Assembly: GCA_964592525.1 (NCBI GenBank)
Contig: CAZQFB010000003.1
Span: 19,043-83,042, forward strand
From: an uncultured Candidatus Saccharibacteria bacterium
Lineage (GTDB): Bacteria > Patescibacteriota > WWE3 > CAZQFB01
Length of the DNA: 64,000 nt
Reading direction: 5' to 3'
The position numbers and the translations under genes are program-made. Of the stretch, positions 17,538 through 57,795 are shown one piece after another. How positions within the stretch are numbered: the first letter of the stretch is position 1; every line of letters starts with the position of its first letter. The notes under the pieces were generated by a model that did no database searches, was not told where the DNA came from, and saw nothing but the letters and a program-made list of their open reading frames with translations.

Positions 17538-17624
17538 GGGCGAGTGGTGGAATTGGTAGACACGCTACCTTGAGGGGGTAGTGCCAGAAATGGTGTGGAG
17601 GTTCAAGTCCTCTCTCGCCCACCA
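17538..17624 (+). tRNA. tRNA-Leu (anticodon GAG), CCA encoded
   Basis: Acceptor GGGCGAG/CTCGCCC. Anticodon stem CTACC/GGTAG with loop TTGAGGG. Long variable arm. 3' ACCA. Confidence 0.85.
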
Positions 17625-17690
17625 ATAATGAGGTGCAGGTGCTTTACGTCGCTTTAAAAGATGTTTAGTATGTAAGCAATCATTGAACCT

Positions 17691-17763
17691 GCCGAGGTAG
17701 CCAAGGTGGTCACGGCACATGTCTGAAAAACATGGGATGTCAGTTCGACTCTGACCCTCGGCA
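17691..17763 (+). tRNA. tRNA-Phe (anticodon GAA)
   Basis: Acceptor GCCGAGG/CCTCGGC. Anticodon stem CATGT/ACATG with loop CTGAAAA. T-loop TTCGACT. Confidence 0.75.
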
Positions 17764-17767
17764 CACT

Positions 17768-17840
17768 GCGGGAGTAGCTCAGTTGGTAGAGCGTTTCCTT
17801 GCCATGGAAAAGGTCGCGGGTTCAAATCCCGTCTCCCGCT
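17768..17840 (+). tRNA. tRNA-Gly (anticodon GCC)
   Basis: Acceptor GCGGGAG/CTCCCGC. Anticodon stem TTTCC/GGAAA with loop TTGCCAT. T-loop TTCAAAT. Confidence 0.85.
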
Positions 17841-17844
17841 CATA

Positions 17845-18081
17845 ATGTACACGACATACATTATTAGAGGTAGAGCTACTGGCAGGTATTATATTGGTAG
17901 CACAGCTGATTTTGAGAGAAGATTAGCTGAGCATAATCGGGGGCACACTTTATTTGATAAGGTCAACGAACCATTTGAAGTCATTAGGGTTGAAAAGTAT
18001 AGTACAAAGAGAGAAGCGCTTAAGAGAGAAGGGAAGATTAAGAGCTTTAAGGGAGGTAATAGTTTTAGAAAACTAGTTTGA
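17845..18081 (+). CDS. free-standing GIY-YIG nuclease domain protein (78 aa)
   Basis: MYTTYIIRGRATGRYYIGSTADFERRLAEHNRG carries the canonical GIY-YIG core (Y-I...Y-IG-T..R..EHN). Starts 5 nt after the tRNA-Gly 3' end. Confidence 0.75.
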   Translation: MYTTYIIRGRATGRYYIGSTADFERRLAEHNRGHTLFDKVNEPFEVIRVEKYSTKREALKREGKIKSFKGGNSFRKLV

Positions 18082-18133
18082 AGAGCGTCCCGCTTAGCGG
18101 GAAGGTCGCGGGTTCGAATCCCGTCTCCCGCTC
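18082..18133 (+). pseudogene. 3' fragment of a tRNA-Gly-like gene (direct repeat of tRNA-Gly 3' end; putative att or degraded tandem tRNA)
   Basis: AAGGTCGCGGGTTCgAATCCCGTCTCCCGCTC matches tRNA-Gly positions 17810-17841 at 31/32 nt. It is preceded by the D-stem remnant GAGCG and a degenerate anticodon arm. There is no 5' acceptor or D-arm half. Confidence 0.6.
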
Positions 18134-18213
18134 TGGTGCTAAAATGATCTTGGGAATCACTATCCCACTTATGCTTATCAATATCTCAATTATTAAACAA
18201 AGAAAGGAAAATC

Positions 18214-18549
18214 ATGACCGATGTACATGACGTTACGGTGATTTATAACAATCTGGAGGAATACCTTAACGAGCAAGAAAGAGAAAATATTAATCACCTT
18301 ATTACTAATTTTTGTTTAAAAATCAGTCGGCAAGAAGAGATAGAAAAAATTGAGGTCAGTGCAACAGTACAAAAAAACCCTGTAGGCGAAGCTAACACTT
18401 TTCAAATTACCACCAAGCTGAATTTTTTTTCGGGTGAATATTTGGTTGCCCATGCCGGTGGTTGGGAGCTTGATTTGGCTATTAGAGAAGCATTAAAGAG
18501 ATTGGAAAAGCAGGAGAGAAGAAAACACCAACAAAAAGTTGACCATTAA
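18214..18549 (+). CDS. hpf: ribosome hibernation promoting factor / RaiA-family protein (short form)
   Basis: C-terminal ...TTKLNFFSGEYLVAHAGGWELDLAIREALKRLEKQERRKHQQK parallels the HPF pattern (..GGE.HA.AE..DMYAAID.L.DKL.RQL.KHKDK). Confidence 0.55.
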   Translation: MTDVHDVTVIYNNLEEYLNEQERENINHLITNFCLKISRQEEIEKIEVSATVQKNPVGEANTFQITTKLNFFSGEYLVAHAGGWELDLAIREALKRLEKQERRKHQQKVDH

Positions 18550-18561
18550 TATAAATACCTG

Positions 18562-18633
18562 TGAGCGGTACTGGACTCGAACCAGTGACCTTTCGGATGT
18601 AAGCCGAATGCTCTACCAACTGAGCTAACCGCT
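18562..18633 (-). tRNA. tRNA-Val (anticodon TAC)
   Basis: Reverse complement GAGCGGTTAGCTCAGTTGGTAGAGCATTCGGCTTACATCCGAAAGGTCACTGGTTCGAGTCCAGTACCGCTC. Anticodon loop CTTACAT. Confidence 0.8.
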
Positions 18634-18691
18634 CCAATTAGGCTATTTTAACAAAATATAGCCTCTCTACCCAAATCATGAGTGCTATACT

Positions 18692-20842: not shown

Positions 20843-21844
20843 TTAATACTTAGTAGCACTGGTTAGGGTTGTTTGACCAAGTTCGGCTGCGACTTCTTTT
20901 GCTAAGCATTCTTTAAAGACTTGTCTAGCTTCTGGGTATTTGGAGTTATCTCCACGCCAAGTTTCTAAAGCAGGTTGTTCAAGAGCGCGCAGGAATGAAA
21001 AAGATATTTGCCAAGGGAGGGGTTCAAGTTGAGCGATAGCATTAAGGTTAGCTGTTGCTTGGTCAGGCGTTTGACCACCCGATAAAAAAACAATGCCCGG
21101 AACATCATTAGGCACTGTTTGTTTTAATACCTGCACCGTTAGTTGCGCAGTTTCTGCGGGGGTGCTGGGTTGACCGTTGCTGGGTAGGATCATATTGGTT
21201 TTTAAAATAATTTGCTCGCGATTAACGCGCAGGAAATCAAGCTCACGAAACAAGCTTAGTAATATTTCAGTAGAAACTTCGCCGCATTTTTCTGCACTAT
21301 GCTGACCATTCATTAATACCTCTGGTTCAAGGATAGGGACTAAACCTGCCTGTTGCACGATTGAAGCATATAAGGCCAACAGGTTTGAATTAACTGCAAT
21401 TGCTTGTGGGGAGGGAATGCCATCGCCAATACTATAAACGCTTCGCCATTTGGTAAAGCTTGCCCCCAAACTTTTAAAAACCCTAACCTTAACGGCTAAT
21501 TGGTCAAGTCCCTCGGTATATTTTTCCTGTGGAAAACCCGGCAAGTTGGTAGTACCAAGATCTACTTTAACCCCGATCAAGATGCCCTTTTGTTTTAATA
21601 TTTCCGTAAAACCTAGCCCGTTACTAGCTGTTTGTTGAATAGTATCTTCGGCTAAGATGATACCGTTAATGTAATTTTCCAAGCCATCAGTGCAGATAAA
21701 TAGTTGACGGTACGCTCGTCGCATTTCTGCCGTTGGGGGTATGCCCAAGCTTGTAAATTTCTTATTTAAGGAGGAAATTCTCTCATCCGAGGCCAAGATC
21801 CCTTTACCGGGATGGACTAATAGTCGGGCAGTATTAGTTTGCAT
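20843..21844 (-). CDS. class I (glycolytic/eukaryotic-type) fructose-bisphosphate aldolase
   Basis: GKGILASDERISSLNKKFTSLGIPPTAEMRRAYRQLF...GIILAEDTI matches the class I FBA N-terminal pattern (GKGILAADES...TAENRR.YR..L....GVILFEET). 333 aa. Confidence 0.8.
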   Translation of the reverse strand: MQTNTARLLVHPGKGILASDERISSLNKKFTSLGIPPTAEMRRAYRQLFICTDGLENYINGIILAEDTIQQTASNGLGFTEILKQKGILIGVKVDLGTTNLPGFPQEKYTEGLDQLAVKVRVFKSLGASFTKWRSVYSIGDGIPSPQAIAVNSNLLALYASIVQQAGLVPILEPEVLMNGQHSAEKCGEVSTEILLSLFRELDFLRVNREQIILKTNMILPSNGQPSTPAETAQLTVQVLKQTVPNDVPGIVFLSGGQTPDQATANLNAIAQLEPLPWQISFSFLRALEQPALETWRGDNSKYPEARQVFKECLAKEVAAELGQTTLTSATKY

Positions 21845-24284: not shown

Positions 24285-24405
24285 CTTTTATCAAGAGTGC
24301 GGTTAGAGATTTGGCTCAATGACCCGCCGGCAACCAATGCTTTAGCATCAGGTGCCTCCGCCAAAAACGATGAGAGCAAGCCTTAGACTAATCCCTTGAT
24401 AAAAG
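24285..24405 (+). promoter_or_regulatory. SAM-I (S-box) riboswitch candidate in metK leader
   Basis: P1 halves CTTTTATCAAG (24285-24295) and CTTGATAAAAG (24395-24405). Core resembles the S-box consensus (UUAUCAAGAG...GAUUUGGCUCAAUGACCCGCCGGCAACC...GGUGCC). Lies immediately 5' of the SAM synthetase gene. Confidence 0.55.
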
Positions 24406-24439: not shown

Positions 24440-25396
24440 ATGTCTAAATTAATAGCTGAAGCAGTATCTTTTATGCATCCTGATAAAATCTGCGACCAAT
24501 TTTCTGATCTGTTACTAGATGAGTATTTAAAGCAAGATCCCAGGTCACGTGTGGCCGTAGAATGTGTGGGAGGTCATGGCCACCTTTCATTATTTGGGGA
24601 AGTAACCTCTCAAGCGCAACTGGATGCTGCTGCGGTTGCTCGTAAATATTACCAAGCACTAACCGGGGAGGATATTGAGGTCAATTCATATTTAAGCCAA
24701 CAATCGGCTGATATTGCACAGGGTGTAAATTTGGGTGGTGCTGGTGATCAGGGAATCATGATCGGTTATGCTTGTAGTGAAAACAAACTACTTCTACCCC
24801 AAGAAATGTATCTTGCCAGAAAATTGCTTAAAGGACTTAAGGTTGATGCTAAATCACAGGTGGTGATGAATGGTTCTAAGGTAGAGTCTGTAGTGATTTC
24901 AGTTCAAGGTAAAGAGCAAAAGGAATTAGTTGATTATGTTTTGAATCTTGGCATAAATGTAGATAAAAATCATATCTATGCTAATCAGACGGGCAAGTTT
25001 GAGCTTGGGGGATTTGAAGCCGATAGTGGGTGTACGGGTAGAAAGATTGTAGTAGATGCTTACGGACCACGAGTGCCTGTTGGTGGGGGTGCTTTTTCTG
25101 GTAAAGATCCTTCTAAAGTAGATCGTTCATCTGCCTATATGGCACGTTGGATAGCCATTCAGTTATTGCATGAATATGATGCCAAAGAGACATTAGTCCG
25201 ACTTGGATACGTCATTGGTAAGGCAGAACCTTTAATGAAACAAGCCGTTGTTGATGGCAAAGAAATAAACCTTGCTTATGATTGCCGACCAACTGCAATT
25301 ATAGAAAGATTTGATCTTCTAAGACCCATTTATCTGGATACAGCCAAAAATGGTCACTTCGGGAGGAAAGAGCTGCCTTGGGAAAAATTATCTTAA
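24440..25396 (+). CDS. metK: S-adenosylmethionine synthetase (MetK), shortened 318-aa form
   Basis: MetK motifs present: HPDKICDQ, GAGDQGIMIGYA, DAKSQV, GGFEADSGCTGRKIVVDAYG...GGGAFSGKDPSKVDRSSAY, LRPIY..TAKNGHFGR. The central region is about 65 aa shorter than in E. coli MetK. Confidence 0.8.
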   Translation: MSKLIAEAVSFMHPDKICDQFSDLLLDEYLKQDPRSRVAVECVGGHGHLSLFGEVTSQAQLDAAAVARKYYQALTGEDIEVNSYLSQQSADIAQGVNLGGAGDQGIMIGYACSENKLLLPQEMYLARKLLKGLKVDAKSQVVMNGSKVESVVISVQGKEQKELVDYVLNLGINVDKNHIYANQTGKFELGGFEADSGCTGRKIVVDAYGPRVPVGGGAFSGKDPSKVDRSSAYMARWIAIQLLHEYDAKETLVRLGYVIGKAEPLMKQAVVDGKEINLAYDCRPTAIIERFDLLRPIYLDTAKNGHFGRKELPWEKLS

Positions 25397-42528: not shown

Positions 42529-43989
42529 CTACTTTATCCACAGACGGACATCAGCTACGCGTGGTATTTCTTGGTACTCATTTTTCTTTATATAGGAGTC
42601 AAAGGCGTGATTGAGTTTAGGATCCTTAATCGCGTCGCGATCTAAATCAACAATTAAATCTGGTGGCTGTTTATTTAAATAGGTCTCTAAATCTGCATCT
42701 GTAAGGTGTTCTTGTAACTGAAATAAGGTTAGATACCGACCACTGGGTAAAACCCCAGATTGAGCATATAGTTGTGGTAAATCACCAATAATCAATATTT
42801 GTTGGTTTGGTAGTACACTATGCTTAAGATAATTACCTAATTGTTCGATTCGCCACATACGCTGGTCAAAATATTGCTGGTAAGTTTCCACACTTATTTG
42901 CTTACTTTGGAATTGCATAAAATTATGATAATAAGACCACACCGGAACAGCGCTGAAATTGTAGAGGTTAAATACGTAAATAAAGAATAAGGTAAAGATT
43001 ATTGATACTACCTTATCTTTCGTAAGACTAAAGAGCACGGCTAGGGTGAGGGCTAAGGAAGGGGCGACTTGAACTAAATAATGAGGGTAAGAACGATTGG
43101 ATAAAGTGACCGCAAAGAGGGTGGCGAGAAGCCAGATTAATGCTACCAGGGTTAGCTGACTAAGCCTCCTTTTTAGAAGTATTAACGCTAATAAAAACAA
43201 TGCCCAAATTATTATTTTGGGTAACCAACTTAAAGATAGACTACCCCAGACTAGGGGAGGTGAAAAGACCTCAATATACCCCTGGTTATAAATTAAAGTA
43301 CTGTAAACAAAAGCGCCTAAAGCCTGCTTGCTTAAGAAATACATAATCGTTACCAGCCAGGGCAGCAATAACCCAGTGATACTAACCATTAATTCGCTTA
43401 CTAAATAAGTCATGTTAGCGGGGGGTCTTAACACTAAAATGATCAAGAGCAAAGTGAAAAAATCAAACAGGGCAACAGCTTTAATTAGCGTGGCAAGACC
43501 ACATAGTAACCCTGCGCCAAAAAGCCATCGGTAGGCACTTGCTGGGCTTTTATTTAAATAGCACCACCCCAAGTAAAAAGCACCAATGACAAAAGGTGAC
43601 ATTAATATTTCTGCATTGGTAATGTTACCTTCCCACACTGGCGTAGCAGTAAGTAATACCAACAGCAAGGTAGCTAAAAAAGCAATGTTGTTTCGCCCAC
43701 CTATTTTCTTAGTTAAATGGAAAAAGAGAAACACACTCACAAACTGACTAACTAAAGCTATTAAACGAAAGACCCATAATGAGGGAGAAAGTAACGCTAG
43801 CCAGTATATACCAGGTGGCTTGTTATCAAATATGTCTTGGTATAATAACCAACCGTGGCGTAGACATCGACCAATCGTCAGATACATAGCTTCATCTAAA
43901 TACCAATAAGGCTCAAACAAAGAGGGCAGCCTTAATAGCACTAGCAAGATTAAAATTAGTATTAAAGACCGGGGGAAATAGGTTTTCAT
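42529..43989 (-). CDS. GT-C membrane glycosyltransferase (family 39/83, ArnT/PMT-like)
   Basis: 486 aa polytopic. YWYLDEAMY (DE motif in first extracytoplasmic loop) typical of ArnT/PMT_2-type glycosyltransferases. C-terminal soluble domain. Confidence 0.55.
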   Translation of the reverse strand: MKTYFPRSLILILILLVLLRLPSLFEPYWYLDEAMYLTIGRCLRHGWLLYQDIFDNKPPGIYWLALLSPSLWVFRLIALVSQFVSVFLFFHLTKKIGGRNNIAFLATLLLVLLTATPVWEGNITNAEILMSPFVIGAFYLGWCYLNKSPASAYRWLFGAGLLCGLATLIKAVALFDFFTLLLIILVLRPPANMTYLVSELMVSITGLLLPWLVTIMYFLSKQALGAFVYSTLIYNQGYIEVFSPPLVWGSLSLSWLPKIIIWALFLLALILLKRRLSQLTLVALIWLLATLFAVTLSNRSYPHYLVQVAPSLALTLAVLFSLTKDKVVSIIFTLFFIYVFNLYNFSAVPVWSYYHNFMQFQSKQISVETYQQYFDQRMWRIEQLGNYLKHSVLPNQQILIIGDLPQLYAQSGVLPSGRYLTLFQLQEHLTDADLETYLNKQPPDLIVDLDRDAIKDPKLNHAFDSYIKKNEYQEIPRVADVRLWIK

Positions 43990-46196
43990 TATCCCTCAAC
44001 TTTATGCCATCCAAACATACGTCGCAAAGCAGATAAGACTTGACCAGTGTAGGATGGTTTATTGGGGGATTGTAATCTAAACTGATAGGCCTTTTCAATG
44101 ACTGGTAAGGATAATGAAAATCGCTGCGCAGTACTGATTGTCCATTCTCCTTCTCCGGTGTGATCTACCTCACTACTAATGCCTTTTAAATCAACTCCAA
44201 ACTCAAGGTAGGCTTTACCTAGCCAGGAAATTAGGGCTGAATCAATAATACTACCCTCATCATAAATCTGCGCAATACGGGCTAAGGGTAATGAGTACTC
44301 ACCTTGATGCAAGAGGGTAAAGCCTTCCGCAATCGCTTGCATCATACCGTATTCAATGCCATTGTGGACCATTTTAACAAAATGACCAGCACCAGAAGCA
44401 CCCATATAGCCATAACTATTATTCGTGGACAAGTTTTTAAAAAGAGCTTCATATCTCTCAAAAACCTGACGATCTCCACCAATCATCAACGAAGCGCCTT
44501 TAAGAGTACTTTCTGGCCCACCATTAACCCCGCAATCTAAAAAATTAATACCATGGTGTTTAAATTCTTGGTATCGTCTGACTGACTCTTGGTAATAAGA
44601 ATTACCCCCATCTATGACCGTGTCTCCTGGCTCAAGTAAAGGTAGTAATTCGGCAATTTTTTTATCAACCTGCTGATAAGGTAACATCAACCAAATTATC
44701 CGTGGTGTTTTAAGTTGTCTGACTAGCTCATCAGTAGCAAAGACGGGTGTAATTGTATTGGCTAGTGCTTCTACCTTTTCCGTTACCTTATCAGTTCCGA
44801 TTACTTCCCACTGAAAACTTGCCAACCTCTTAGCGATACCACTGCCCATCTTGCCTAAACCGATTAAACCCAATTGTGGTTTAGTATGAGGTGTTGCTTG
44901 TTTACCCGCTAAGATATTACGAGTGGCTTCTTTATAAAGCTCCACTTGTGGCTGATTGAAGGCATTAATATTCAACAACTTAGCTAAGTAGGTAATTTCA
45001 ATCATTTTAAACTGTAAAAACGAACCCAGCTCGGCTTCCGTTAGCTGTTCCAGTTCAAGTTCCATAAAAGGCAGCCCTAGTTGTTGGTAACTTTGCACGG
45101 TACCTTTTTGTATAGCCAAACTAATTTGATTAACATTTAAGCCAGAAACCTCCGGTAATACTTTGGCAAAAGAAAATTTAGTCGCAACTACAGGACCGGG
45201 TAGAGGATTATTAATGGTAATAAAGGTGGTTATTTTATCCCTGGGTCCAGCCATATTTAACTGCAACATACTATGTAAATCGATTGATCCGATAGATACC
45301 GTTGGGGTGATGCCAACATTGACTAGATCATTATGGTCATTAACTAATTTACCCAAACTCTCGGCCATAAGCTGGCGGTACCATTTACCTAAGGATTCTA
45401 GTTCGGGGGCAAAATAAAAGTGATCACTGATATTATTACCCTGAAGATAGAGATGATACTGAATACAGGCTGATAATAAGGCTGGGTTTTCCAAAGCACC
45501 TTGTTTTAAACAGGAAGGCGTAATTTCAGAAGCTCCCTTAATCAAAGAGTCAATGTCTATCACAAAACTTAACGGTACTAAACCCGCGGCTGAAAACACA
45601 CAAAAGCGCCCGACTATTTTATCTGGTATAGCCATAAAAGGTAATTGTTTTTGCTGTGCATACTCAAACAACGGGGAACCAGCTTGAGAAATAATAAGCA
45701 CCCTTTGAGCAAAAAGTGGGAATTGCTGGCTAATAACATCAAGGTTAATAAGTGTTTCTGTGGTGGTACCAGACTTGCTAATAACAATAAAGAGCACTTT
45801 TTCGGGAGCAGATACTTCCTGATTTAAAAATTGATTTAAAGAGTTAAGCAAAGAGCTGTTAGTAGTATCAGCAAAGATAATTTTGGGGTATTTATTGGGG
45901 TTAAGATGTTCATAATAACCTTGCAGGGCATCATAGATGGCTTTGGCTCCTAGGTTAGAACCCCCAATACCAATCAGCACTAGGTAACTAAGTCCCTCAT
46001 GACTATATTGTTGTCTGATCGCTTTAACTTGATTTAATAAATTTTGATCAAAGGGGAGCTTAATAAAACTGGTAAAGCCTTCATCAGCCGACGAGGTATT
46101 TAGCTTGTTAATATAATCAGTTAAAGAATCAGCTAATTTAGTTAGTTCGGTGGTCGCAATGCCATGGGTTTGGGCAGTAGCTTTTAGCTTCAGCAT
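43989..46196 (-). CDS. fusion protein: glucose-6-phosphate isomerase (N) :: 6-phosphogluconate dehydrogenase-like (C)
   Basis: N-terminal PGI motifs (LIGIGGSNLG, VISKSGTTTET, GRFCVFSAAGL, LMAESLGK, NQPQVELYK). From about residue 440, Gnd-like motifs (LGLIGLGKMGSGIAKRL, GAGHFVKMVHNGIEYGMMQAIAEGF, GEWT, ALRRMFGWH). One continuous 735-aa frame. Confidence 0.7.
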   Translation of the reverse strand: MLKLKATAQTHGIATTELTKLADSLTDYINKLNTSSADEGFTSFIKLPFDQNLLNQVKAIRQQYSHEGLSYLVLIGIGGSNLGAKAIYDALQGYYEHLNPNKYPKIIFADTTNSSLLNSLNQFLNQEVSAPEKVLFIVISKSGTTTETLINLDVISQQFPLFAQRVLIISQAGSPLFEYAQQKQLPFMAIPDKIVGRFCVFSAAGLVPLSFVIDIDSLIKGASEITPSCLKQGALENPALLSACIQYHLYLQGNNISDHFYFAPELESLGKWYRQLMAESLGKLVNDHNDLVNVGITPTVSIGSIDLHSMLQLNMAGPRDKITTFITINNPLPGPVVATKFSFAKVLPEVSGLNVNQISLAIQKGTVQSYQQLGLPFMELELEQLTEAELGSFLQFKMIEITYLAKLLNINAFNQPQVELYKEATRNILAGKQATPHTKPQLGLIGLGKMGSGIAKRLASFQWEVIGTDKVTEKVEALANTITPVFATDELVRQLKTPRIIWLMLPYQQVDKKIAELLPLLEPGDTVIDGGNSYYQESVRRYQEFKHHGINFLDCGVNGGPESTLKGASLMIGGDRQVFERYEALFKNLSTNNSYGYMGASGAGHFVKMVHNGIEYGMMQAIAEGFTLLHQGEYSLPLARIAQIYDEGSIIDSALISWLGKAYLEFGVDLKGISSEVDHTGEGEWTISTAQRFSLSLPVIEKAYQFRLQSPNKPSYTGQVLSALRRMFGWHKVEG

Positions 46197-46245
46197 AGTG
46201 CAAGGTCTATACTCAAAGCATACACTGGCAACGTAGCTAGGGCAA

Positions 46246-47469
46246 TCAATCGGATGATCGGCACACCAGACTAGGGATGGTTTGTTTTTTTAGCACTGGG
46301 GGGTAACCGCGGATTTTTGGAAGTTGTTGAACGACCTTGAACTGGGGGTAGACTTCATGATTATTTTTTTTAATCCAAGAAAAATGATCATGCGGTGGAT
46401 CATAGCGAATAGTGAAGGGGGTGACTGCCACGACTCGTTCATCCTTCAACCAGACATCAGTATAGGCTACTTTAATATAATCAGCGGTGGTAAATTGATC
46501 ATAGTAACTGTCATTATCAACCTCTCCTTCGGCATGGGGCCAACCTGTTTCGGTTATAAATACTGGTAGGTTATTCACCCCAAAATAATCTTTTAGTACG
46601 GCTAATTCCCACTCATAGCCACGAATACTCTGTCGCCCTTGCTCGTAAGGTTTGCCTTGGTAATGAGGTTGCGGATAGGAATGGCTAGCCCAACCATCTA
46701 ACTTTTTAAAGATGCCTGGTATTTGGTTATCCATTCTAACCATAAAGCTAACTTGATCTAAATAACCATTGGTAGTTGGCGCGGTAGCATTGAAGGCACC
46801 ATTTAGCATAAAAAAATTATTATTGAGTGTCTTAAAAATATTAATGGTTTCGCTTAAAACTATAGCGTAACCTTCGGGATCTAAACCACCGTTCCAAAAT
46901 CGGGCATCATTAACTTCATTATAAACACTGACATATCTCGGTCTAATAGGCCAATCTTGAGCATTTAAAAATTTGGCTGCTGCTTGAGTTTGTTCTAAAT
47001 ATAACTCGGGATCAACATCCCATAACTGGATAATCGGTATTAATTGTTTTTGCGTTAACAGTGCAAAAAGCTTACGCCATTTATCATAATCTAAGTCCTT
47101 TACATTATATGGTATTAACACGTAACCCCAGGCGCCACCCTGACTGTTAACCAAATCGCCGGCTATTTCAATAAAATCAGCCACATCATAGATATACAGA
47201 CCAAATTTGTTATTGATATAACCGATATTTTCTTGTCGCCCAACAAGCGTCGTTGCTTCTGGCTGGTAGGATATTGAACTGATATTTGCTTGGTAGCGAC
47301 AAACTTCCCGTCTGTTTTTTAGTTTCAGAGATTGACTATCTTTATCAGAAACACTGTTTTCAATTCTGACGGAAGTTAAGTAATTATGAACCTGCTCTGG
47401 CTGATATTTAATTGTGACGGTGATGAGGATAACCAGTATCACCGCTAATATTAAGGTGTACTTGCACAT
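46246..47469 (-). CDS. membrane-anchored glycoside hydrolase-like TIM-barrel protein
   Basis: N-terminal TM. YVSVYNEVN (acid/base-like NE) and ITETGWPHAEG (nucleophile-like ETGWP) motifs reminiscent of clan GH-A enzymes. Family not assigned. Confidence 0.4.
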   Translation of the reverse strand: MCKYTLILAVILVILITVTIKYQPEQVHNYLTSVRIENSVSDKDSQSLKLKNRREVCRYQANISSISYQPEATTLVGRQENIGYINNKFGLYIYDVADFIEIAGDLVNSQGGAWGYVLIPYNVKDLDYDKWRKLFALLTQKQLIPIIQLWDVDPELYLEQTQAAAKFLNAQDWPIRPRYVSVYNEVNDARFWNGGLDPEGYAIVLSETINIFKTLNNNFFMLNGAFNATAPTTNGYLDQVSFMVRMDNQIPGIFKKLDGWASHSYPQPHYQGKPYEQGRQSIRGYEWELAVLKDYFGVNNLPVFITETGWPHAEGEVDNDSYYDQFTTADYIKVAYTDVWLKDERVVAVTPFTIRYDPPHDHFSWIKKNNHEVYPQFKVVQQLPKIRGYPPVLKKQTIPSLVCRSSD

Positions 47470-47493: not shown

Positions 47494-48501
47494 GTGCCCA
47501 ACCTAGAAACTAGTTACTATAGTGTTATGGACGATCTTGATCTTATCGCCATTGGTGACACCACAGTAGATGTTTTCTTTGATTTAGAAGAAGCTGCCGT
47601 TAATTGTGAACTAGATACTAATAATTGCAAGCTATTACTTAATTATGCCGAGAAAATACCGGTAAAAAAAGTGGTGCAGGTACCTGGGGTTGGCAACGCG
47701 GCTAATTGTACTGTTGGGGCTACTAGGCTTGGACTTAAAACAGCACTGTACACTGTTATTGGCAAAGATCACGCCGGTCAACAAATCAAAGATATTTTAA
47801 TTAAAGAAAAGATTATTTGTGATTACCTACAAGAAGATGAACACCGGGGTTCAAATTATTCAGCCGTGATAAATTATCTGACAGAAAGAACCATTCTAGT
47901 TTATCATGAACCCCGCGACTATAATTTACCCCCACTACCCAAAGCTAAATGGTTGTACTTTTCTTCCGTAGCCCATACTCACGGCCAGTTGTATAACCAG
48001 ATATTAGATTATCTAGAAACTAATCAGAGCTTATTAGGCTTTAATCCTGGTACTTATCAATTACAGGAAGGTTTATCTACTCTGGAACCAATCATAAAAA
48101 ATACTGATGTGTTAATTCTTAACCGAGAGGAGGGTAAAAAATTACTCGGTCGGGATCAAGACCCAGCTCAATTAGCAGAAAGTCTTTATCAGTTAGGTGC
48201 CAAAAAAGTCATTGTCACCAACAGTGCTTCAGGCGCTTATGCCTATGACGGTGAGCATCATTATTACCAACCTATTTTAGAGTGTGCCGTCGTGGAACGA
48301 ACGGGTGCGGGGGATGCTTTTTCCACTGGCGTTATTACGGCACTAGTTTATGGTTTTGAATTCAGCGAAGCTTTGCGTTGGGGAACCATTAACGCTTGGT
48401 CGGTGCTTCAGTATATTGGCGCCCAAGAAGGCTTACTGGCAAAGGCTAAAATGCAGGAGCTTTTGCATAATAACCCACAACTACAACCCCAGATTAACTA
48501 A
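47494..48501 (+). CDS. PfkB-family carbohydrate kinase (ribokinase-like)
   Basis: Signature GAGDAFSTGVITAL near the C-terminus and N-terminal GG-type nucleotide-sugar-binding region. Confidence 0.75.
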   Translation: MPNLETSYYSVMDDLDLIAIGDTTVDVFFDLEEAAVNCELDTNNCKLLLNYAEKIPVKKVVQVPGVGNAANCTVGATRLGLKTALYTVIGKDHAGQQIKDILIKEKIICDYLQEDEHRGSNYSAVINYLTERTILVYHEPRDYNLPPLPKAKWLYFSSVAHTHGQLYNQILDYLETNQSLLGFNPGTYQLQEGLSTLEPIIKNTDVLILNREEGKKLLGRDQDPAQLAESLYQLGAKKVIVTNSASGAYAYDGEHHYYQPILECAVVERTGAGDAFSTGVITALVYGFEFSEALRWGTINAWSVLQYIGAQEGLLAKAKMQELLHNNPQLQPQIN

Positions 48502-51450: not shown

Positions 51451-52327
51451 GTCTAAATATTACAACATTAGCTTCAGAATAATTGCTTTTAATTCAACAC
51501 TCCGCTATTTTTATAATGTGCGTATATTTAGAACATTATTAGCTCTTGTTATTGCGATCATTATTATCACCTTTACCCTTCTTGTTTTTCTAACTGCAGA
51601 TAACGTAGAACTTAATAATAAGCTGGCATTAAAGTATGATTTTTGGCCCCAATTTGGCACCAACGCAGAAATCAATACCCTAACAAGTGTAAAGGCTAAT
51701 GATTTTGCACCGATTACCAGTCAATTGATTGACATTAAAGCTACGGCTCCAGAGCTAATCATTAGCGCTAAGAAAAGCAGCAATATTTTAACTTTTGAAG
51801 CTACCTATACCAAAAAAGCAGATAAACCAAAGATAGTCTGGGAGCAGAACGAAGAAGGTCGTGTGACGGTAGAAATGAGAAGGAACTGGGGCATAGTCGA
51901 TTTACCACTAATGCCTTATGAAAACGCTTTATATGAAGTGCTGCTAGGTAATTTGGAGGTACCTACCCAGTTAATATTAAACCTCAAAGGTGGTTATACA
52001 GAAATAGAATTTTTGGAAGCTGGACCAGAAACCATTGATATTTATATGGACAGTGGAAAATGTAAAATAAGTTTAGGGGAAAGCATAGCTGCAAATTTAA
52101 TATTGAGTTCAGAATATGCTGATTTTGAAATTATGCTGCAACCTAACACTGACTATACTCTAACCTATAACTTGGGAGAAAACGCTAAATTAACTATGCC
52201 AAATAATGATGTTTATCGCCATAGTTACGGTAATATGGAAAGTGAAACCGCCCAACTATCGATTAATGTGGTCACGATTGCTGGTGACGTTTCAATTGCT
52301 CACCTAGAAAACTTAACTACTGATTAG
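51449..52327 (+). CDS. hypothetical membrane-anchored beta-rich protein (DUF4097/adhesin-like?)
   Basis: N-terminal TM, then a repetitive beta-strand-like region. No motif recognised. Confidence 0.35.
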   Translation: MSKYYNISFRIIAFNSTLRYFYNVRIFRTLLALVIAIIIITFTLLVFLTADNVELNNKLALKYDFWPQFGTNAEINTLTSVKANDFAPITSQLIDIKATAPELIISAKKSSNILTFEATYTKKADKPKIVWEQNEEGRVTVEMRRNWGIVDLPLMPYENALYEVLLGNLEVPTQLILNLKGGYTEIEFLEAGPETIDIYMDSGKCKISLGESIAANLILSSEYADFEIMLQPNTDYTLTYNLGENAKLTMPNNDVYRHSYGNMESETAQLSINVVTIAGDVSIAHLENLTTD

Positions 52328-53522
52328 TTAAGCGCAATTTTAAATCAGTTAAGGCATTCATAAACACGATAAAAGCTTGATAAGGAGATTCGTAAGGCGA
52401 AAAGTATTTATGAACATCACCATCATTAAACCATTTCGTGCACATGAAATAAAAATGGTCTGAAGTTTGTAATTTTTGCCAATCGCGTATTAGGTCCTCA
52501 TCACCACAAGACAATACCTCTTTTTCTATTTCATAAATGGCGTGAAGAGCATCTCGTTGCATTTTATTACCATTCCAAGCAGACAAATCCCTTTCCGTAT
52601 CTGCCCAGGTAATTACTTGCGGAACATCAAGTTCGCCAACTGCCTCAAAGGAATCTATGACCTCCGTTGTCGTCATGAAAGTATTATCAGGGTGTTTAAG
52701 TAGCTCACCTGGTAAAGCAGACAAAAAATCAAAGATGCCCTCTGCTTCCCATTGATGTTCCCCAAAGGTCTCAAAATCCATAAACAAATTGATATTAGTA
52801 CCAGTACCATTTATGGCATTGACCCAGTGGGCATATTTTTCAGTTGTCAGTGGCCACTCCTTCCAACTTTTTTCCGAAAAGCGAAAAGCAATATCATCCG
52901 ATAATCTAAAGTTTTTCAGTAGCACTTTAATCTTCTTGGTATTAGCGGGTCGGTAGACAAAATTTGGACTCCGCCAGCCTAATACCGGGTCCCAACCTTC
53001 AGTGACTATTCCTTTATACCCCGCTTGATCAGCCCATTGGCCAAGCTGATTATTATAAGCTAGTTCCGTATTAACAAAAACCTCGGGTTTGGTACCTAGG
53101 ACATCTATAATTAGACGTTGGTGCTTTTCTACCTGACGTTCAAATTCCTTAAGGCTATAAAAAAAAGAAAGTGAGTGGTAATACGTTTCTGCTAATATTT
53201 CACATTTTCCGGTACGTACCATCGCATGGATTGATTCAACGACATCAGGAAAGTGCGCCAACAATTGTTCTAATAAGGTGCCGGTCAGAGATAAGCTGAT
53301 TTTAAATTGGGGATATTTTTTCAATAAAGATAATAATATCTGGTTAGTCGGCCGATATGATTTTTCCACTATTTTTTTTAAGATTTTGAGGTTATCTGGG
53401 TTTTGTACATCCGTACTGGCATTACCATTAAAGTACGAGTGGTCCTTACCAATATCAAAAACTCGGTATTTTTTAATCCGATAGGGTTGATGAGCTTTTA
53501 GATACAAACATATAGCCGCCAT
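52317..53522 (-). CDS. glycoside hydrolase family 57-like protein
   Basis: N-terminal LYLKAHQPYR (the GH57 HQP region) and conserved acidic residues. Adjacent to glycogen-synthase-like GT and a GH15-like gene. Confidence 0.5.
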   Translation of the reverse strand: MAAICLYLKAHQPYRIKKYRVFDIGKDHSYFNGNASTDVQNPDNLKILKKIVEKSYRPTNQILLSLLKKYPQFKISLSLTGTLLEQLLAHFPDVVESIHAMVRTGKCEILAETYYHSLSFFYSLKEFERQVEKHQRLIIDVLGTKPEVFVNTELAYNNQLGQWADQAGYKGIVTEGWDPVLGWRSPNFVYRPANTKKIKVLLKNFRLSDDIAFRFSEKSWKEWPLTTEKYAHWVNAINGTGTNINLFMDFETFGEHQWEAEGIFDFLSALPGELLKHPDNTFMTTTEVIDSFEAVGELDVPQVITWADTERDLSAWNGNKMQRDALHAIYEIEKEVLSCGDEDLIRDWQKLQTSDHFYFMCTKWFNDGDVHKYFSPYESPYQAFIVFMNALTDLKLRLTNQ

Positions 53523-53527
53523 AGCAA

Positions 53528-54763
53528 TTATTTATTAAGCACTTCTTGGTAGACTTGCAGTACTTTGTCGGCTGCCAAAGACCAAGTTTGCTTACAGGTA
53601 TCTTGATAGCCATTGTCGCTTAATTCTTGTTTTAATGCCGAATATTTCAACACCGCAATGATATTGTTAGCCATTTCCTCAATATCCCAACAATCAACTT
53701 TAAGCGAATTTGGTAGCACCTCACTCACTCCTGATTGTTTGGAAATAATAACCGGTGTTTTGTGGGCTAATGCTTCCAGAGCCGTCATACCGAAGGGCTC
53801 GGAAATTGAAGGCATGACAAAAACATCAACATGAGACAATACCTGCTGTAGCTCTTTGCCGCGTAAAAATCCGGTAAATAAAGTTCTTTGGGCAATACCC
53901 AAATCAGCCACTAGGCTGATTAATTCGTTTTCTTGTTCACCACTACCAGCAACCAAAAAGTAGGCTTGTGGATAATGAGCTAATACTTTTTTGGCACTGC
54001 GTAAAAACAAATCCACACCTTTGTGCAAGCTTAACCGACCAAAATACAAGACGCATTGATAGTTATTTTTTTTAAGCAAGCTGATAATAGCAGGCATTTC
54101 AGCCTCCCTTTTATAAACACCCATATCTACACCATTATGAACCACACTAATTTGCGCTAAGGGGACTTGATATTCTTGGTGAATAATATTTTTAGTGTAA
54201 TGTGAATTAGCGATCACTCCATCAGCACTGTGTAATGCTTGGTACTCAATCATTTTACAAAAAGCGTTACCATGACTAGAAGCGCCGGAACGATCATATT
54301 CAGTGGAATGGACGTGGGTGATTAACGGAACCTGTGCCACTTCACGAGCGGCTAAACCAGCTTTAAAAGTTAACCAATCATGGGCGTGTAAAACATCAAA
54401 CTTTTTTTGCTTGACCACTTTGGCAGCTTGTCGCGCATAACTTAAAACCTTATGGGCTAAATCATGGTCCTTGATCGTTATTTCTTCCGCGCTTAGGCGC
54501 TGGTATTCAGCTAAAGTTAAATAACCTGACATAAAGGGCTTGTATTCAGTAAGCGGACTTGCCTCATCGGCAAACAGAAACTGCACTAAACCATCCTTCG
54601 CCTCAATTTTCCAGGGTAAGAGAAAGGAAACATTAACTCCCTTTGCAGCCAGTGCTTCACATAAGTGTTTACAAGCTACCCCCAAACCACCGCTATTGTA
54701 GGGAGGATACTCCCAACCTAAAATTAGCGTATTAATCATTGTGGTGGTACGCAAGTCGCGCAC
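53528..54763 (-). CDS. glycosyltransferase family 4/5 (archaeal-type glycogen/alpha-glucan synthase-like)
   Basis: N-terminal GGLGVACKHLCEALAAKGVNVSFLLP and C-terminal GT-B donor-binding region (SISEPFGMTALEALA). Confidence 0.65.
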   Translation of the reverse strand: MRDLRTTTMINTLILGWEYPPYNSGGLGVACKHLCEALAAKGVNVSFLLPWKIEAKDGLVQFLFADEASPLTEYKPFMSGYLTLAEYQRLSAEEITIKDHDLAHKVLSYARQAAKVVKQKKFDVLHAHDWLTFKAGLAAREVAQVPLITHVHSTEYDRSGASSHGNAFCKMIEYQALHSADGVIANSHYTKNIIHQEYQVPLAQISVVHNGVDMGVYKREAEMPAIISLLKKNNYQCVLYFGRLSLHKGVDLFLRSAKKVLAHYPQAYFLVAGSGEQENELISLVADLGIAQRTLFTGFLRGKELQQVLSHVDVFVMPSISEPFGMTALEALAHKTPVIISKQSGVSEVLPNSLKVDCWDIEEMANNIIAVLKYSALKQELSDNGYQDTCKQTWSLAADKVLQVYQEVLNK

Positions 54764-56784
54764 ACTCCTAAATCTCTTAATTTCTCTAGGTATTCAATGA
54801 TGGTAACCACATATTCCGCATGGCTCCAGGTTAAAGGCGCTGCTGATATTTGTTCTCCGGAATCGGGGTTTAATTGTTCAGACAAAACTCCCGCTGCCGA
54901 TTGATGTTCCGTTATCCAAGCCAACTGTTTCATGACCACATCTAAGTCTTTGGTTGATTGTGCTACCGCAATATAGTATTGAGTTAGCCAAAGAGTAGTC
55001 ACAAACCAGGGATTACTGGGGCTATCTTTGTGCACCCTAAAATAATTATCATTTTCGTATCTTTGTAGACCGCCAATTTTGGTGGGGTTAGTCAGCTTAC
55101 TTTCCGCTAGCTTGATTAATTTAGACATCTTCTCATCATGTAAAGGTATAAGTTGAAACTTAAAAGCAGCGTAAACACTAGACATGTCCATGGTATGGTC
55201 AATTTCTATGGTGCCATCTTTAGCAGTGTTGATCATTTTATAAAAGTATCCTTCTTGTTCATTGTATAAATGACCCATAATAGACCGCCTAATAACTTCT
55301 ACCTGCTGCAGATATTTTTCGGAAAGTTCGGTTTTTCCTAATATCTGGGCAAACTTACCAGCCACTTCTAAGGCTTGGGCAACTGCTGCACAAGTAAAAG
55401 TAGACACGCCAAACTTTTCTTCCCAAAGGTCATAACTGGGTCTAGGTAAACCAGTTCGCTCGTCAATATAACTGACCATAAAATCAGCGGCCTTTCTGAC
55501 TAAGGGGTTAAACAATTCCTCAATAAATTCAATTTGTCGATCTAACAAGTAATGATTCCAAAGAGCAATAAGCACTAAGGCCGTTTCATCTTCTTGAATG
55601 GGTAATTCCACATAGTCACCTCTAACCCAAGGATGCCAAGAGGAACCAAGCGAAAAATCAGCACGATATTTATGCAACATATAACCATCCTGATGAAGGA
55701 CTTTGCGACAAAACTGAAAGTAATTATTAGTCGTTGAGAAATAACGCGCTTTATCCATCGCTACTGAGGCAAAGGCAGCATCGCGCGGCCAGACATAACA
55801 ATAGGTATCACGACCTTGTTTAAGTAGGTCAGAATCTCCAGAAGCAATCACCCCACCGTGGTTATCAAAATGAGTTCTAATATTAAAAAGCGATTTAGTG
55901 AAAAGCTTAACAACTTCAGGTTTAAGCCCGTAGAAACTAAATCTTTCCTTACTAGCCCAAGCTTTCCAGTAATTACGCGTGGATGAAATTAAATATTCCG
56001 GGCTTCGTTGAATAACATAGTTGTTTAAGAAATAGACTTCCGCTAAATATTTAGATACCGTTAACCAATAATAAAAACTGACCGTTTCTGTGGCTGGCAA
56101 AGTTAGTGACGCGGCGCAAACTGAATCCACCAAGCCGTGTTCGATGGGATTTTTGCTTAAATTACCATCTTCAGCATCTTTGTAGGTCCCTTCTTTACCT
56201 TCCATGCCTAGTAAACCAATACTGTAATCGGTAATACCAATTTCACCATTGGTTATTAAATTAGCTAAAAATACGCGTCTACCTTTATAGTGAATTAACA
56301 CTTTTTCTAGCGGATCATAATAAGCCGTATCACCACGATGCGATTCATACAACTCAAATTGATGATTAATAAATAATTTGGCATACCTTTGCTCATTAAC
56401 TAGGTTATGTAATTGAATTTTACGGATTAAGATATTTTTCTCGTTATACACCACATCGTTAAAGAGTATTTCTAGCTGAAAGCGATGATTTATGGCTTTT
56501 ATGTCACTTACTAATGCATCATCTGCACAATCAACGCTAATTTCCCAAGTACCATCATCTAACCAGGAAAAGTTGCCATCTATTTGCACTCCGATTTTGT
56601 GCAAGTAGCCATTACCTATTTGATTTTCTAAGCCAACATAAGGGAAGTAGAGGTCATAAACCTGACCATAGCGATCAAAAGTCACTAAAACTGAACCATT
56701 TCCTAAAGTAAGCGCTTTGGGCATGAAAAAACTCCAAATCCAGTGTAACATAAGAGTAAATAGAAAAGAACACCCCGCCAGCAT
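54736..56784 (-). CDS. glycoside hydrolase family 15-like (glucoamylase/glucodextranase, (alpha/alpha)6 barrel)
   Basis: N-terminal beta-sandwich domain and catalytic-domain motifs including DLWEE (general acid region). 682 aa. Confidence 0.5.
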   Translation of the reverse strand: MLAGCSFLFTLMLHWIWSFFMPKALTLGNGSVLVTFDRYGQVYDLYFPYVGLENQIGNGYLHKIGVQIDGNFSWLDDGTWEISVDCADDALVSDIKAINHRFQLEILFNDVVYNEKNILIRKIQLHNLVNEQRYAKLFINHQFELYESHRGDTAYYDPLEKVLIHYKGRRVFLANLITNGEIGITDYSIGLLGMEGKEGTYKDAEDGNLSKNPIEHGLVDSVCAASLTLPATETVSFYYWLTVSKYLAEVYFLNNYVIQRSPEYLISSTRNYWKAWASKERFSFYGLKPEVVKLFTKSLFNIRTHFDNHGGVIASGDSDLLKQGRDTYCYVWPRDAAFASVAMDKARYFSTTNNYFQFCRKVLHQDGYMLHKYRADFSLGSSWHPWVRGDYVELPIQEDETALVLIALWNHYLLDRQIEFIEELFNPLVRKAADFMVSYIDERTGLPRPSYDLWEEKFGVSTFTCAAVAQALEVAGKFAQILGKTELSEKYLQQVEVIRRSIMGHLYNEQEGYFYKMINTAKDGTIEIDHTMDMSSVYAAFKFQLIPLHDEKMSKLIKLAESKLTNPTKIGGLQRYENDNYFRVHKDSPSNPWFVTTLWLTQYYIAVAQSTKDLDVVMKQLAWITEHQSAAGVLSEQLNPDSGEQISAAPLTWSHAEYVVTIIEYLEKLRDLGVCATCVPPQ

Positions 56785-56853
56785 TGCACTGTAGCACCCA
56801 TACTGACAGAGCGCTACTTATTTTAACTAATTCTATTATGCTAGACTTAAGTC

Positions 56854-57795
56854 ATGACTAAATTATTTTTGGGGGTGAATGGGGGTGGTTCCGGTACCAC
56901 TGCTTGTTTAATTGAGCCCTCAAACACAAGTAAACTTAGCGGTGGACCAACCCATTATTTTAGTGTCGGTTTAGACACCGCCCTAGATAACTTAAACCAA
57001 TTGTTGGAAGCATTGCTGGGTCAACAAAATCATAATGAAATAAAGGCAGTGATCAGCTTATCGGGACTAGATACTGCCCATGATATCGCTTTGTGGCAAA
57101 CCAAGCTGCATGATATATGGTCAAGTAAATATCCGCACTTACAGTTTTATCTGATTAATGACACGTTAGCTGCCCTGCGGTCGGGGACCCAGAATGCTAA
57201 TGCTGCTGTCATTATCAGCGGTACTGGTTCGGTCGCTTATGGTCGTAATCATAAAGGGGAAAGTAGTAAAACCGGTGGTTTAAAGCAGATCTTATCTGAT
57301 GAGGGTAGTGGTTATGATATTGGTCTCCAGGCACTTAAACATGTTACCCGCACCATGGACGGTCGGGATAAACCCACGCCACTATCACAAAGATTTCAAC
57401 AGCATTACCAAGTAGCTACTTTGGAAGAGTTACATAACCTAATCTACAGCTCCTCAAGTAAACAAGGCTGGGATAAAAAACAAATCGCAGCGGTGGCCAT
57501 ATTAGTGGGCGAAGCACTTGAAGAAGGCGACCAATACGCTTTATCTATATGTCACCAAGCATCAGCCAATTTGTTTTTGATGGTTGACACCGTGATCCAA
57601 AACTTGGCGCTAACTAAATTTGATTTGGTGCTCGCTGGAGGAATACTAGAACATATACTCGTTGTTAGTGACTTGTTAACTACTCAAGTCAAGAATAAGT
57701 ACCCTGATAGCACTATCTGTCAGCCTCAAATTGAGTATGCAGAAGCAGCTGCCTTACTTGCCCGGGAAAACCTACACTTTTTCCGGAGCGGGTAG
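56854..57795 (+). CDS. BadF/BadG/BcrA/BcrD-type ATPase (N-acetylglucosamine kinase-like, ASKHA fold)
   Basis: N-terminal LGVNGGGSGTT phosphate-1 motif. ISGTGSVAYG phosphate-2 motif. Confidence 0.65.
   Translation: MTKLFLGVNGGGSGTTACLIEPSNTSKLSGGPTHYFSVGLDTALDNLNQLLEALLGQQNHNEIKAVISLSGLDTAHDIALWQTKLHDIWSSKYPHLQFYLINDTLAALRSGTQNANAAVIISGTGSVAYGRNHKGESSKTGGLKQILSDEGSGYDIGLQALKHVTRTMDGRDKPTPLSQRFQQHYQVATLEELHNLIYSSSSKQGWDKKQIAAVAILVGEALEEGDQYALSICHQASANLFLMVDTVIQNLALTKFDLVLAGGILEHILVVSDLLTTQVKNKYPDSTICQPQIEYAEAAALLARENLHFFRSG

Follow-up and report, generated by a model that had tools for sequence, protein, structure and literature searches.

Phosphoglucose isomerase (PGI) interconverts fructose 6-phosphate (F6P) and glucose 6-phosphate (G6P), whereas the substrate of the decarboxylating 6-phosphogluconate dehydrogenase (6PGDH; Gnd) is 6-phosphogluconate (6PG), and the Zwf and Pgl steps intervene between the two. 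Several enzymes of sugar-phosphate metabolism are fused in nature, including the G6PD-6PGL proteins GluPho of Plasmodium, those of Giardia and Trichomonas, and vertebrate H6PD (PMC3148214, PMC4470864). A G6PD-6PGD fusion is described from diatoms (Stover et al. 2011, PMC3148214). In Patescibacteria and Actinomycetota, Zwf-Gnd fusions are widespread, which is the by-product of this analysis with the broader use; limited literature searches for them gave the diatom example only. That transaldolase-PGI fusions are known, as the original prediction stated, is confirmed by a dedicated protein family (NF007080) and by one of the loci compared here (L077). No description of a PGI-6PGDH fusion was found in limited searches of the literature.

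The window, i.e., the whole 64-kb stretch of DNA analyzed, comes from an uncultured Patescibacteria-like bacterium and contains such a protein. An open reading frame (ORF) at 43989..46196 on the minus strand encodes 735 amino acids (aa), starts with ATG, ends with a single terminal TAA (43989-43991), and is uninterrupted in the ORF listing. The original prediction gave no strand. Its reading of one unbroken 735-aa frame is upheld, all the PGI and Gnd motifs that it quoted are present in the translation, and the Pfam scan that it proposed matched the PGI, NAD_binding_2, and 6PGD domains in this ORF. The complete PGI domain, delimited by PF00342 and our alignment A1, covers residues 1-432 (44901..46196, minus strand); a 9-residue linker follows (residues 433-441, 44874..44900, minus strand), and a complete short-type decarboxylating 6PGDH, delimited by TIGR00872, alignment A2, and an alignment with 8ihe and 4e21, covers residues 442-735 (43992..44873, minus strand). 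The linker agrees with the junction predicted at about 44880-44900. A stop codon or frameshift there would have undone the prediction; none is present in the sequence, and a second assembly is identical. This is the Logan assembly of run SRR11845625, whose contig L001 carries the same ORF and is 100% identical across 43894..46725, junction included, although both assemblies possibly share reads. The accession of this run is absent from searchable papers. Gene calling gave 735 aa in both NCBI and Logan. The PGI-Gnd fusion is real as assembled.

The N-terminal part is a predicted glucose-6-phosphate isomerase. PF00342 matches residues 64-430 (model positions 91-467 of 486) with 65.5 bits (cutoff 22), and the PGI structure matched is PDB chain 2q8n (E 5e-43). 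Residues of the catalytic type are present at R197 (GRF), E279 (AESLGK), H308 (DLHS), and K422 (VELYK), presumably corresponding to R272, E357, H388, and K518 of the rabbit/human enzyme; these four and K141-T145 of the SKSGTT loop all occupy invariant columns of A1, and none of 40 near-invariant columns shows a departure (250 sequences). The NCBIfam equivalog cutoffs for glucose-6-phosphate isomerase are missed, with scores of 229 versus 487 (NF003016) and 209.5 versus 443 (NF010697). Stand-alone Patescibacteria PGIs also stay below the cutoff (244-264 versus 443), indicating that the shortfall is typical of the lineage and not a sign of decay. Compared with two such stand-alone enzymes (P0002 and P0003; 47-48% identity), the PGI half is an ordinary member of its family that has kept the catalytic residues.

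The junction itself points to how the two halves were joined. Its linker, QATPHTKPQ, can be read as an old stop codon followed by a 24-nt intergenic spacer, and the junction-spanning peptide of the fusion is ...ILAGKQATPHTKPQLGLIGLGK.... Codon 433 (44898..44900, minus strand), the putative old pgi stop, is CAA (Gln), a single T-to-C transition away from TAA. In A1, stand-alone Patescibacteria PGIs terminate 0 to 5 residues past ...ILAG, at K432 or no more than 5 residues from it, and one PGI gene (P0389, locus L087) ends with ATA CTG GCG GGG AAA TAA where the fusion reads ATC TTA GCG GGT AAA CAA. P0389 was also considered as a nearer relative and rejected: it is 69% identical over the last 60 residues yet 53% over 177 aa, a contig end truncates the gene, and it is useful solely for the position of the stop codon. 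At the other end of the linker, codon 442 (44871..44873, minus strand), TTG (Leu), encodes the first Gnd residue, with the Rossmann motif following, and is a possible ancestral or residual gnd start; the Met of typical stand-alone Gnds aligns at P440, two codons 5' of this TTG, and homolog N termini fall at P440-L442. No SD-like motif was found upstream of TTG 442, such motifs being scarce in the genome anyway (5 of 34 starts), and no promoter-like site, terminator, or unusual RNA structure at the junction exceeded chance.

Unfused pgi-gnd(-zwf) operons occur in Bacteroidetes (L055), Thermoflexus hugenholtzii (L058), and Chloroflexota (L076 and L077), with pgi ahead of gnd on one strand and gaps of about 30 to 120 nt. 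In T. hugenholtzii, pgi and gnd lie in the same frame with one stop and 13 codons between them, presumably resembling the state before fusion. In these operons pgi and gnd are separate genes with zwf next, whereas at the fusion the stop is gone and the next gene is membrane glycosyltransferase-like. Most likely, the fusion arose by single-base loss of the pgi stop (TAA to CAA) in a pgi-gnd operon, an origin argued from relatives only about 50% identical. The ancestral operon would have held separate genes; after the mutation at codon 433, the ribosome would read through the 24-nt spacer and on into gnd, whose frame matched by chance. If so, the birth of the fusion is still legible in the presumed single-base event, the old spacer, and the old start region, and its pre-fusion operon can be seen in other bacteria. 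We regard it as probable, with a fair share of doubt, that this is a genuine in-frame fusion of stop-loss origin that yields a bifunctional PGI and Gnd polypeptide, with independent domains and with co-expression but no channelling.

No second PGI-Gnd fusion emerged from collections that derive from about 15 billion proteins, whether 5.8 billion clusters were searched by word index or 1.84 billion representatives exhaustively with phmmer, nor from GTDB species-representative genomes, which exclude the source genome. A codon-degenerate junction pattern allowing TAA, TAG, CAA, or CAG at codon 433 gave no second case in JGI metagenomes. A junction-centred 140-aa query returned no second fusion, a weak negative since the fusion itself (P0001) was not returned either, and a further sub-query search that likewise missed P0001 is also weak as a negative for other fusions. 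Proteins of 738-799 aa that end in a Gnd domain were considered as candidates, and all proved to be Zwf-Gnd, the architecture of 7 protein clusters of this length. The architecture is rarer than the "not a common architecture" of the original prediction, being a singleton in the collections searched. It comes from one genome and one sample, and no second lineage speaks for its persistence, which counts against the reading as a genuine fusion.

Such a singleton could be an error of sequencing or of the consensus, or an allele that is rare or short-lived; most cells would then carry TAA at codon 433 and make PGI and Gnd separately, the latter from TTG 442. CAA is one transition from TAA, a legal in-frame start lies 24 nt downstream, and the Logan contigs from the source organism, of 2.8 and 4.6 kb, are short, suggesting modest coverage. 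We nevertheless consider this explanation unlikely, given that the same base appears in two different assemblies, that consensus substitution errors are rare, that both gene calls span the full frame, and that the other ORFs of the window are clean and compact, without signs of bad assembly.

The C-terminal part is a predicted decarboxylating 6PGDH. NAD_binding_2 matches residues 442-592 (118 bits) and 6PGD residues 604-713 (62.8 bits). With 320.4 bits, residues 441-734 exceed the cutoff of 297.2 set for the NCBIfam model TIGR00872 (gnd_rel), of whose 299 positions they cover 2-296. Competing Rossmann models (hydroxyacid, HIBADH, and tartronate semialdehyde reductase) reach at most 62 bits on this half, far below the Gnd model, and the predicted Gnd identity thus prevails over the hydroxyacid dehydrogenase family that the original prediction had weighed against it. 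The 6PGDH structures matched by the fusion are PDB chains 4e21 and 8ihe (E 1e-50). Characteristic motifs and residues include GLGKMG (446-451), D469, N532, K608, H611, N612, E615, Y616, and, in the tail, R725 and H731. From K608 onward, these are invariant columns of A2, lying in the catalytic block GAGHxVKMVHNGIEYG and the LRxxFGxH tail, and all residues invariant in A2 are kept. We take the Gnd residues to correspond to K183, H186, N187, E190, R446, and H452 of sheep 6PGDH, with K608 as general base and E615 as general acid. In these respects the Gnd half is an ordinary member of the short 6PGDH family (TIGR00872), to which Gnd2 of M. tuberculosis (8ihe) and 4e21 also belong, with its catalytic residues retained. 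In this family, an Asp at the end of beta-2 that replaces an Asn-Arg-Ser/Thr motif is taken as a mark of preference for NAD+ over NADP+. In 8ihe, an entry labelled NAD(+)-dependent by its depositors, and in 4e21, the Asp lines up with D469 (VIGTDK); both the D type and the NRS/NRT type occur at this position among close relatives. Judged from this residue, the Gnd half probably prefers NAD+.

What sets the Gnd half apart from ordinary TIGR00872 enzymes, besides its union with PGI, is S558N and changes in the adjacent loop. Codon 558 (44523..44525, minus strand), AAT, encodes Asn where sheep 6PGDH has Ser128; 133 of 134 homologs have Ser there, and the fusion alone has Asn. Sheep Ser128, in the GxSGG loop, is part of a Ser128/His186/Asn187 triad for the substrate carboxylate. 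Two further atypical residues, G563S and A564T, sit in the same substrate loop (GVNGGPEST). Altogether, the Gnd half departs at 6 of 88 near-invariant columns, compared with a homolog median of 1, and as many departures are seen in 4 of 121 homologs. These departures, including the unique S558N, mean that full Gnd activity is not assured.

These changes raise a different question about a fusion that is itself real. Is selection on its Gnd half relaxed or altered, so that 6PGDH activity is being lost or specificity is shifting, perhaps through an unlinked or absent zwf? Both the substitution unique to this protein and the excess of departures fit this scenario, as does the position of zwf, which directly adjoins gnd in 43 of 80 relatives' loci but is not adjacent here; neither zwf nor pgl was found within the 64-kb window. 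Four proteins at the window edges, looked up to extend the search for zwf, gave either no match or only short Logan contigs of the same run. Yet the TIGR00872 equivalog cutoff is still passed, the A2 invariants remain, including Lys608, Glu615, and the C-terminal Arg/His tail, the Asn could still form hydrogen bonds, no internal stop or frameshift interrupts the frame, and the few homologs with equal departures are ordinary ones. Relaxed or altered selection is improbable in our judgment.

There is also a more ambitious interpretation, a speculative one to which we give only a slim chance: a fixed adaptive fusion of an unsampled Patescibacteria lineage. In one version, the protein would be a scaffold for a cyclic oxidative pentose-phosphate route in which F6P is recycled to G6P beside the decarboxylating step, while Zwf would be recruited or come from a gene located elsewhere. 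In the other, the remodelled loop GVNGGPEST with S558N would confer an altered substrate or regulatory property tied to the fused PGI.

The downstream gene (42529..43989, minus strand) encodes a membrane protein of 486 aa that weakly resembles PMT-like glycosyltransferases, and its ATG overlaps the TAA of the fusion by 1 nt (TAATG), which suggests that the two are co-transcribed. The upstream gene (46246..47469, minus strand) ends 50 nt before the fusion ATG and encodes a 407-aa protein with an N-terminal hydrophobic segment and no Pfam match. Nearby genes include a PfkB kinase, a GH15/GT4-5/GH57 glycogen-type cluster, and class I FBA. Under the preferred reading of a genuine fusion with independent domains, one domain would interconvert F6P and G6P and the other would convert 6PG and NAD(P)+ to Ru5P, CO2, and NAD(P)H, each probably dimerizing with its own kind. 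Both activities would serve an oxidative or cyclic pentose-phosphate route, with G6P supplied from glycogen or glucose. The effect of the fusion would be obligatory equimolar co-expression rather than substrate channelling, since the Zwf and Pgl reactions intervene between the two activities. That zwf and pgl are missing from the 64-kb window, in contrast to most relatives, weighs against this reading.

For the same reason, the proposal in the original prediction that hexose phosphate is channelled into pentoses is not supported, PGI and Gnd being non-consecutive. The idea that the fusion passes hexose phosphate straight to pentose phosphate and so replaces a missing G6PDH could draw on the unusual active-site loop of Gnd and on the window, which holds no zwf or pgl. 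However, the products of PGI are not substrates of Gnd, the ORF has no G6P-oxidizing domain, its Gnd half is conventional for TIGR00872, and the absence of zwf pertains to the 64-kb window only, making this idea very improbable. Least credible of all is a chimeric misassembly of pgi and gnd from different organisms, a reading that has only the singleton architecture in its favor and is dismissed because of sequence composition and the second assembly: GC3 is uniform in the two halves (0.340 and 0.342), their codon usage is host-like (cosines to the window background of 0.96 and 0.93, both inside the range of other ORFs), both have their best matches in Patescibacteria at similar distances, the join is an exact in-frame end-to-start one, and the identical 2.8-kb Logan contig crosses it.

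How does this PGI-Gnd fusion compare with the known ones? The bacterial Zwf-Gnd proteins (L010, L012, L017, L034, L036, L037, and P0295-P0362) are close counterparts, having the same short Gnd family at the C terminus. They account for 13 of 33 adjacent zwf-gnd loci as single ORFs, indicating that short Gnd tolerates N-terminal fusion. As in PGI-Gnd, a co-operonic upstream gene is joined through a short linker and the start Met of Gnd is lost; the partner, however, is G6PD in many lineages, compared with PGI in a single case. Our ORF is not of this type, as it gave no Pfam match to the G6PD domains PF00479 and PF02781. The bifunctional transaldolase/PGI (NF007080, PRK09533; L077) likewise fuses PGI to a pentose-phosphate-pathway enzyme, but there PGI is C-terminal and the partner is transaldolase, whereas here PGI is N-terminal; the fusion scores 96.4 bits against the NF007080 cutoff of 712, on the PGI part only, and the transaldolase Pfam domain is absent. 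The G6PD-6PGL proteins, also natural fusions in the oxidative pentose-phosphate branch, join consecutive steps for which channelling of a labile lactone is plausible, unlike PGI and Gnd. If real and active, PGI-Gnd would be a new pairing beside transaldolase-PGI, G6PD-6PGL, and G6PD-6PGD among natural fusions of sugar-phosphate enzymes. It would also be a "Rosetta-stone" link placing PGI in an oxidative or cyclic pentose-phosphate module, as pgi-gnd-zwf operons also suggest. Its interest is modest, as it neither introduces a new mechanism nor settles a question; the combination appears to vary a familiar theme only slightly.

The fusion occupies 43989..46196 on the minus strand as one ORF with an ATG start, 735 codons and a single TAA at its end. 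Three Pfam matches, each above its gathering score, bear out the predicted single-polypeptide fusion of phosphoglucose isomerase (PGI) and short-type 6-phosphogluconate dehydrogenase (Gnd): PGI at residues 64-430, and the NAD-binding and C-terminal domains of 6PGDH at 442-592 and 604-713. All the PGI and Gnd motifs quoted in the original prediction are found in the translation. The C-terminal half is truly Gnd and not a Rossmann look-alike, as TIGR00872 (gnd_rel), the NCBIfam equivalog model of the short decarboxylating 6PGDH, scores 320.4 bits over residues 441-734 against a cutoff of 297.2. Other NCBIfam Rossmann dehydrogenases (HIBADH, tartronate semialdehyde reductase and 2-hydroxyacid dehydrogenases) all score ≤62 bits, so the original prediction withstands the refutation test it had set for this half. 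Among solved structures, the Gnd half matches the short 6PGDHs 4e21 and 8ihe (E about 1e-50), and the PGI half matches bacterial PGI 2q8n (E 5e-43).

A chimeric join is unlikely, because GC3 is equal in the two halves (0.340 and 0.342) and their codon usage matches the window, with cosines of 0.96 and 0.93 to the rest of it (0.82-0.97 for the other window ORFs). A residual doubt is that the join reflects an error in the consensus or a minority allele, the C at 44900 perhaps not being fixed in the population. Against this, an independent Logan assembly of run SRR11845625 contains a 2,832-bp contig, with the identical 735-aa product called on it, that is 100% identical to window 43894..46725 across the junction, although the same reads may underlie both assemblies.

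The architecture is new and has been seen once, and each half is an ordinary member of its family. When 5.8 billion protein clusters were searched by a word index, no second protein spanning both halves came up; the sole match was the query's own cluster, which has one member recorded on one contig, and the remaining top matches were stand-alone PGIs from Patescibacteria, about 435 aa long (42-48% identity). Exhaustive phmmer against 1.84 billion representatives again gave no second PGI-Gnd protein. No second fusion emerged from a scan of GTDB species representatives, from JGI metagenomes probed with a degenerate pattern of the junction, or from a junction-centred 140-aa query, the last being a weak negative since it did not return the fusion's own database entry (P0001). 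The search with the exact 304-aa Gnd half, in which the best stand-alone Gnds were about 300 aa long, 50-54% identical and from Patescibacteria and Nitrospirota, also missed P0001, so that its negative is equally weak. Literature searches found no description of a PGI-6PGD fusion. No relative nearer than about 50% identity occurs in any searched collection, so the singleton status partly reflects a lineage that is essentially unsampled.

How did the two genes become one? Alignment with ten stand-alone Patescibacteria PGIs, which terminate 0-5 residues past the equivalent of ...ILAG, ends the PGI part at K432. In stand-alone short Gnds the N-terminus reads M-(K/Q)-(L/I)-G-x-I-G-L-G-K-M-G, with the Met aligning to P440 of the fusion and the third residue to L442. 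Between lies a linker, QATPHTKPQ (residues 433-441; 44900..44874, minus strand), that is part of neither enzyme. The junction DNA reads ...GCG GGT AAA CAA GCA ACA CCT CAT ACT AAA CCA CAA TTG GGT TTA ATC GGT..., and the database PGI P0389 (contig L087), ending ...ATA CTG GCG GGG AAA TAA, shares ILAGK and then stops at the exact codon that reads CAA in the fusion. On the simplest reading, a TAA->CAA transition removed the pgi stop codon and would have opened a 24-nt spacer leading into an in-frame gnd, whose ancestral start may have been codon 442 (TTG) or a nearby ATG since lost. The junction shows no promoter-like site, no terminator and no RNA fold out of the ordinary. The missing Shine-Dalgarno (SD) motif before TTG 442 is uninformative, because SD-like motifs are scarce in the window (5/34 ORF starts). 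Judging from these starts, translation initiation in the source organism seems largely SD independent.

Both halves retain catalytic residues. The PGI half keeps every invariant family residue, including R197, E279, H308 and K422, with no departures at 40 near-invariant columns; it falls below the NCBIfam equivalog cutoffs, a shortfall common to stand-alone Patescibacteria PGIs. The Gnd half keeps the GAGHFVKMVHNGIEYG block (K608, H611, N612, E615, Y616) and the C-terminal R725/H731 tail, and it probably prefers NAD+, because D469 aligns with the Asp of 8ihe, an enzyme deposited as NAD(+)-dependent. It departs at six of 88 near-invariant columns (median, 1), as many as in only 4 of 121 homologs. 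Three of the six cluster in the substrate loop (residues 558-564; 44505-44525, minus strand), which reads GVNGGPEST against the consensus GVSGGPxGA: the rare G563S and A564T, and S558N, unique among 134 homologs, at the position of sheep Ser128. In sheep 6PGDH, Ser128, His186 and Asn187 form a triad at the substrate carboxylate. Since Asn could still hydrogen-bond, we expect an active Gnd half, perhaps altered, with some residual doubt that it is fully active.

The fusion locus sits among sugar genes. As a sign of an operon, its stop shares 1 base with the ATG of the next gene downstream, which encodes a PMT-like membrane protein, and nearby lies a PfkB kinase (47494-48501). Farther off are a class I aldolase (20843-21844) and a GH15/GT4-5/GH57 glycogen-type cluster (52317-56784; 52317-57795 with a BadF-type sugar kinase), whose GT4/GT5 members are synthase-like and whose GH15 member is glucoamylase-like. 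The same gene set adjoins zwf-gnd-pgi-ROK in a Vogelbacteria relative (L002), whereas in the window it stands apart from pgi-gnd and without zwf. Directly upstream of the fusion, a 407-aa protein (46246-47469, minus strand) carries a hydrophobic segment at its N-terminus and matches no Pfam family; by eye, its motifs …YNEVND… and …FITETGWPH… look similar to those that contain the acid/base and nucleophile in clan GH-A glycosidases. Elsewhere in the window, a SAM riboswitch (RF00162, 54 bits; 24285-24376, plus strand) immediately precedes the gene of an S-adenosylmethionine synthetase (24440-25396, plus strand) that is unusually short at 318 aa and matches all three MetK domains only in part, and seven tRNA genes on both strands cluster within 1.7 kb (16936-18634).

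It had been proposed that the fusion channels hexose phosphate into pentoses and bypasses G6PDH. PGI and Gnd do not catalyze consecutive reactions; the Zwf (G6PDH) and Pgl steps lie between them, leaving direct channelling or a bypass chemically unfounded. If the fusion brings any advantage, it is that two enzymes of the same module are co-expressed at a fixed 1:1 ratio; that module is the cyclic oxidative pentose-phosphate route, where PGI converts F6P back to G6P. No zwf, pgl, tkt or tal occurs within the 64-kb window.

Of 80 Gnd loci taken from species-representative genomes, 43 have zwf as the immediate neighbour of gnd, 34 in the order zwf->gnd and 9 in the order gnd->zwf. The order pgi->gnd occurs in four, from Bacteroidetes (L055), Thermoflexus (L058), Chloroflexota (L076) and Dehalococcoidia (L077), all followed by zwf. 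In Thermoflexus hugenholtzii JAD2 (L058:6800-9529), pgi and gnd share a frame with one stop and 13 codons between them, suggestive of a pre-fusion state from which one substitution would yield a fusion like that of the window. Single-ORF Zwf-Gnd fusions are common (loci L010, L012, L016, L017, L020, L021, L029, L033, L034, L036, L037, L039 and L040; proteins P0295, P0298, P0302, P0311, P0330, P0355 and P0362) and account for 13 of 33 adjacent zwf->gnd pairs, with the Gnd Met gone and linkers of about 15-30 aa. The hosts are Patescibacteria (Doudna-, Wolfe-, Magasanik- and Saccharibacteria), Actinomycetes and Coriobacteriia. Zwf-Gnd, not PGI-Gnd, is also the architecture of the seven 738-799-aa clusters with a C-terminal Gnd in the representative library. 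The zwf-gnd loci L016, L021, L023 and L029 come from "uncultured Gammaproteobacteria" MAGs; their Gnd is 43-48% identical to that of the window, as near as that of named Patescibacteria, and the taxon labels may be unreliable.

Short Gnd thus readily turns into a C-terminal module. Documented fusions of the oxidative branch include G6PD-6PGL in Plasmodium, in Giardia and Trichomonas and as the protein H6PD (PMC3148214, PMC4470864) and G6PD-6PGD in a diatom (PMC3148214), the only Zwf-Gnd pairing described in the literature searched; PGI itself is fused in the same pathway to transaldolase (NF007080). Given the 13/33 Zwf-Gnd pairs and the operon context of gnd, PGI-Gnd represents a rare partner, pgi rather than zwf, in a common process, in which gnd fuses with the operon gene just upstream of it: the architecture is new, and the route is familiar.
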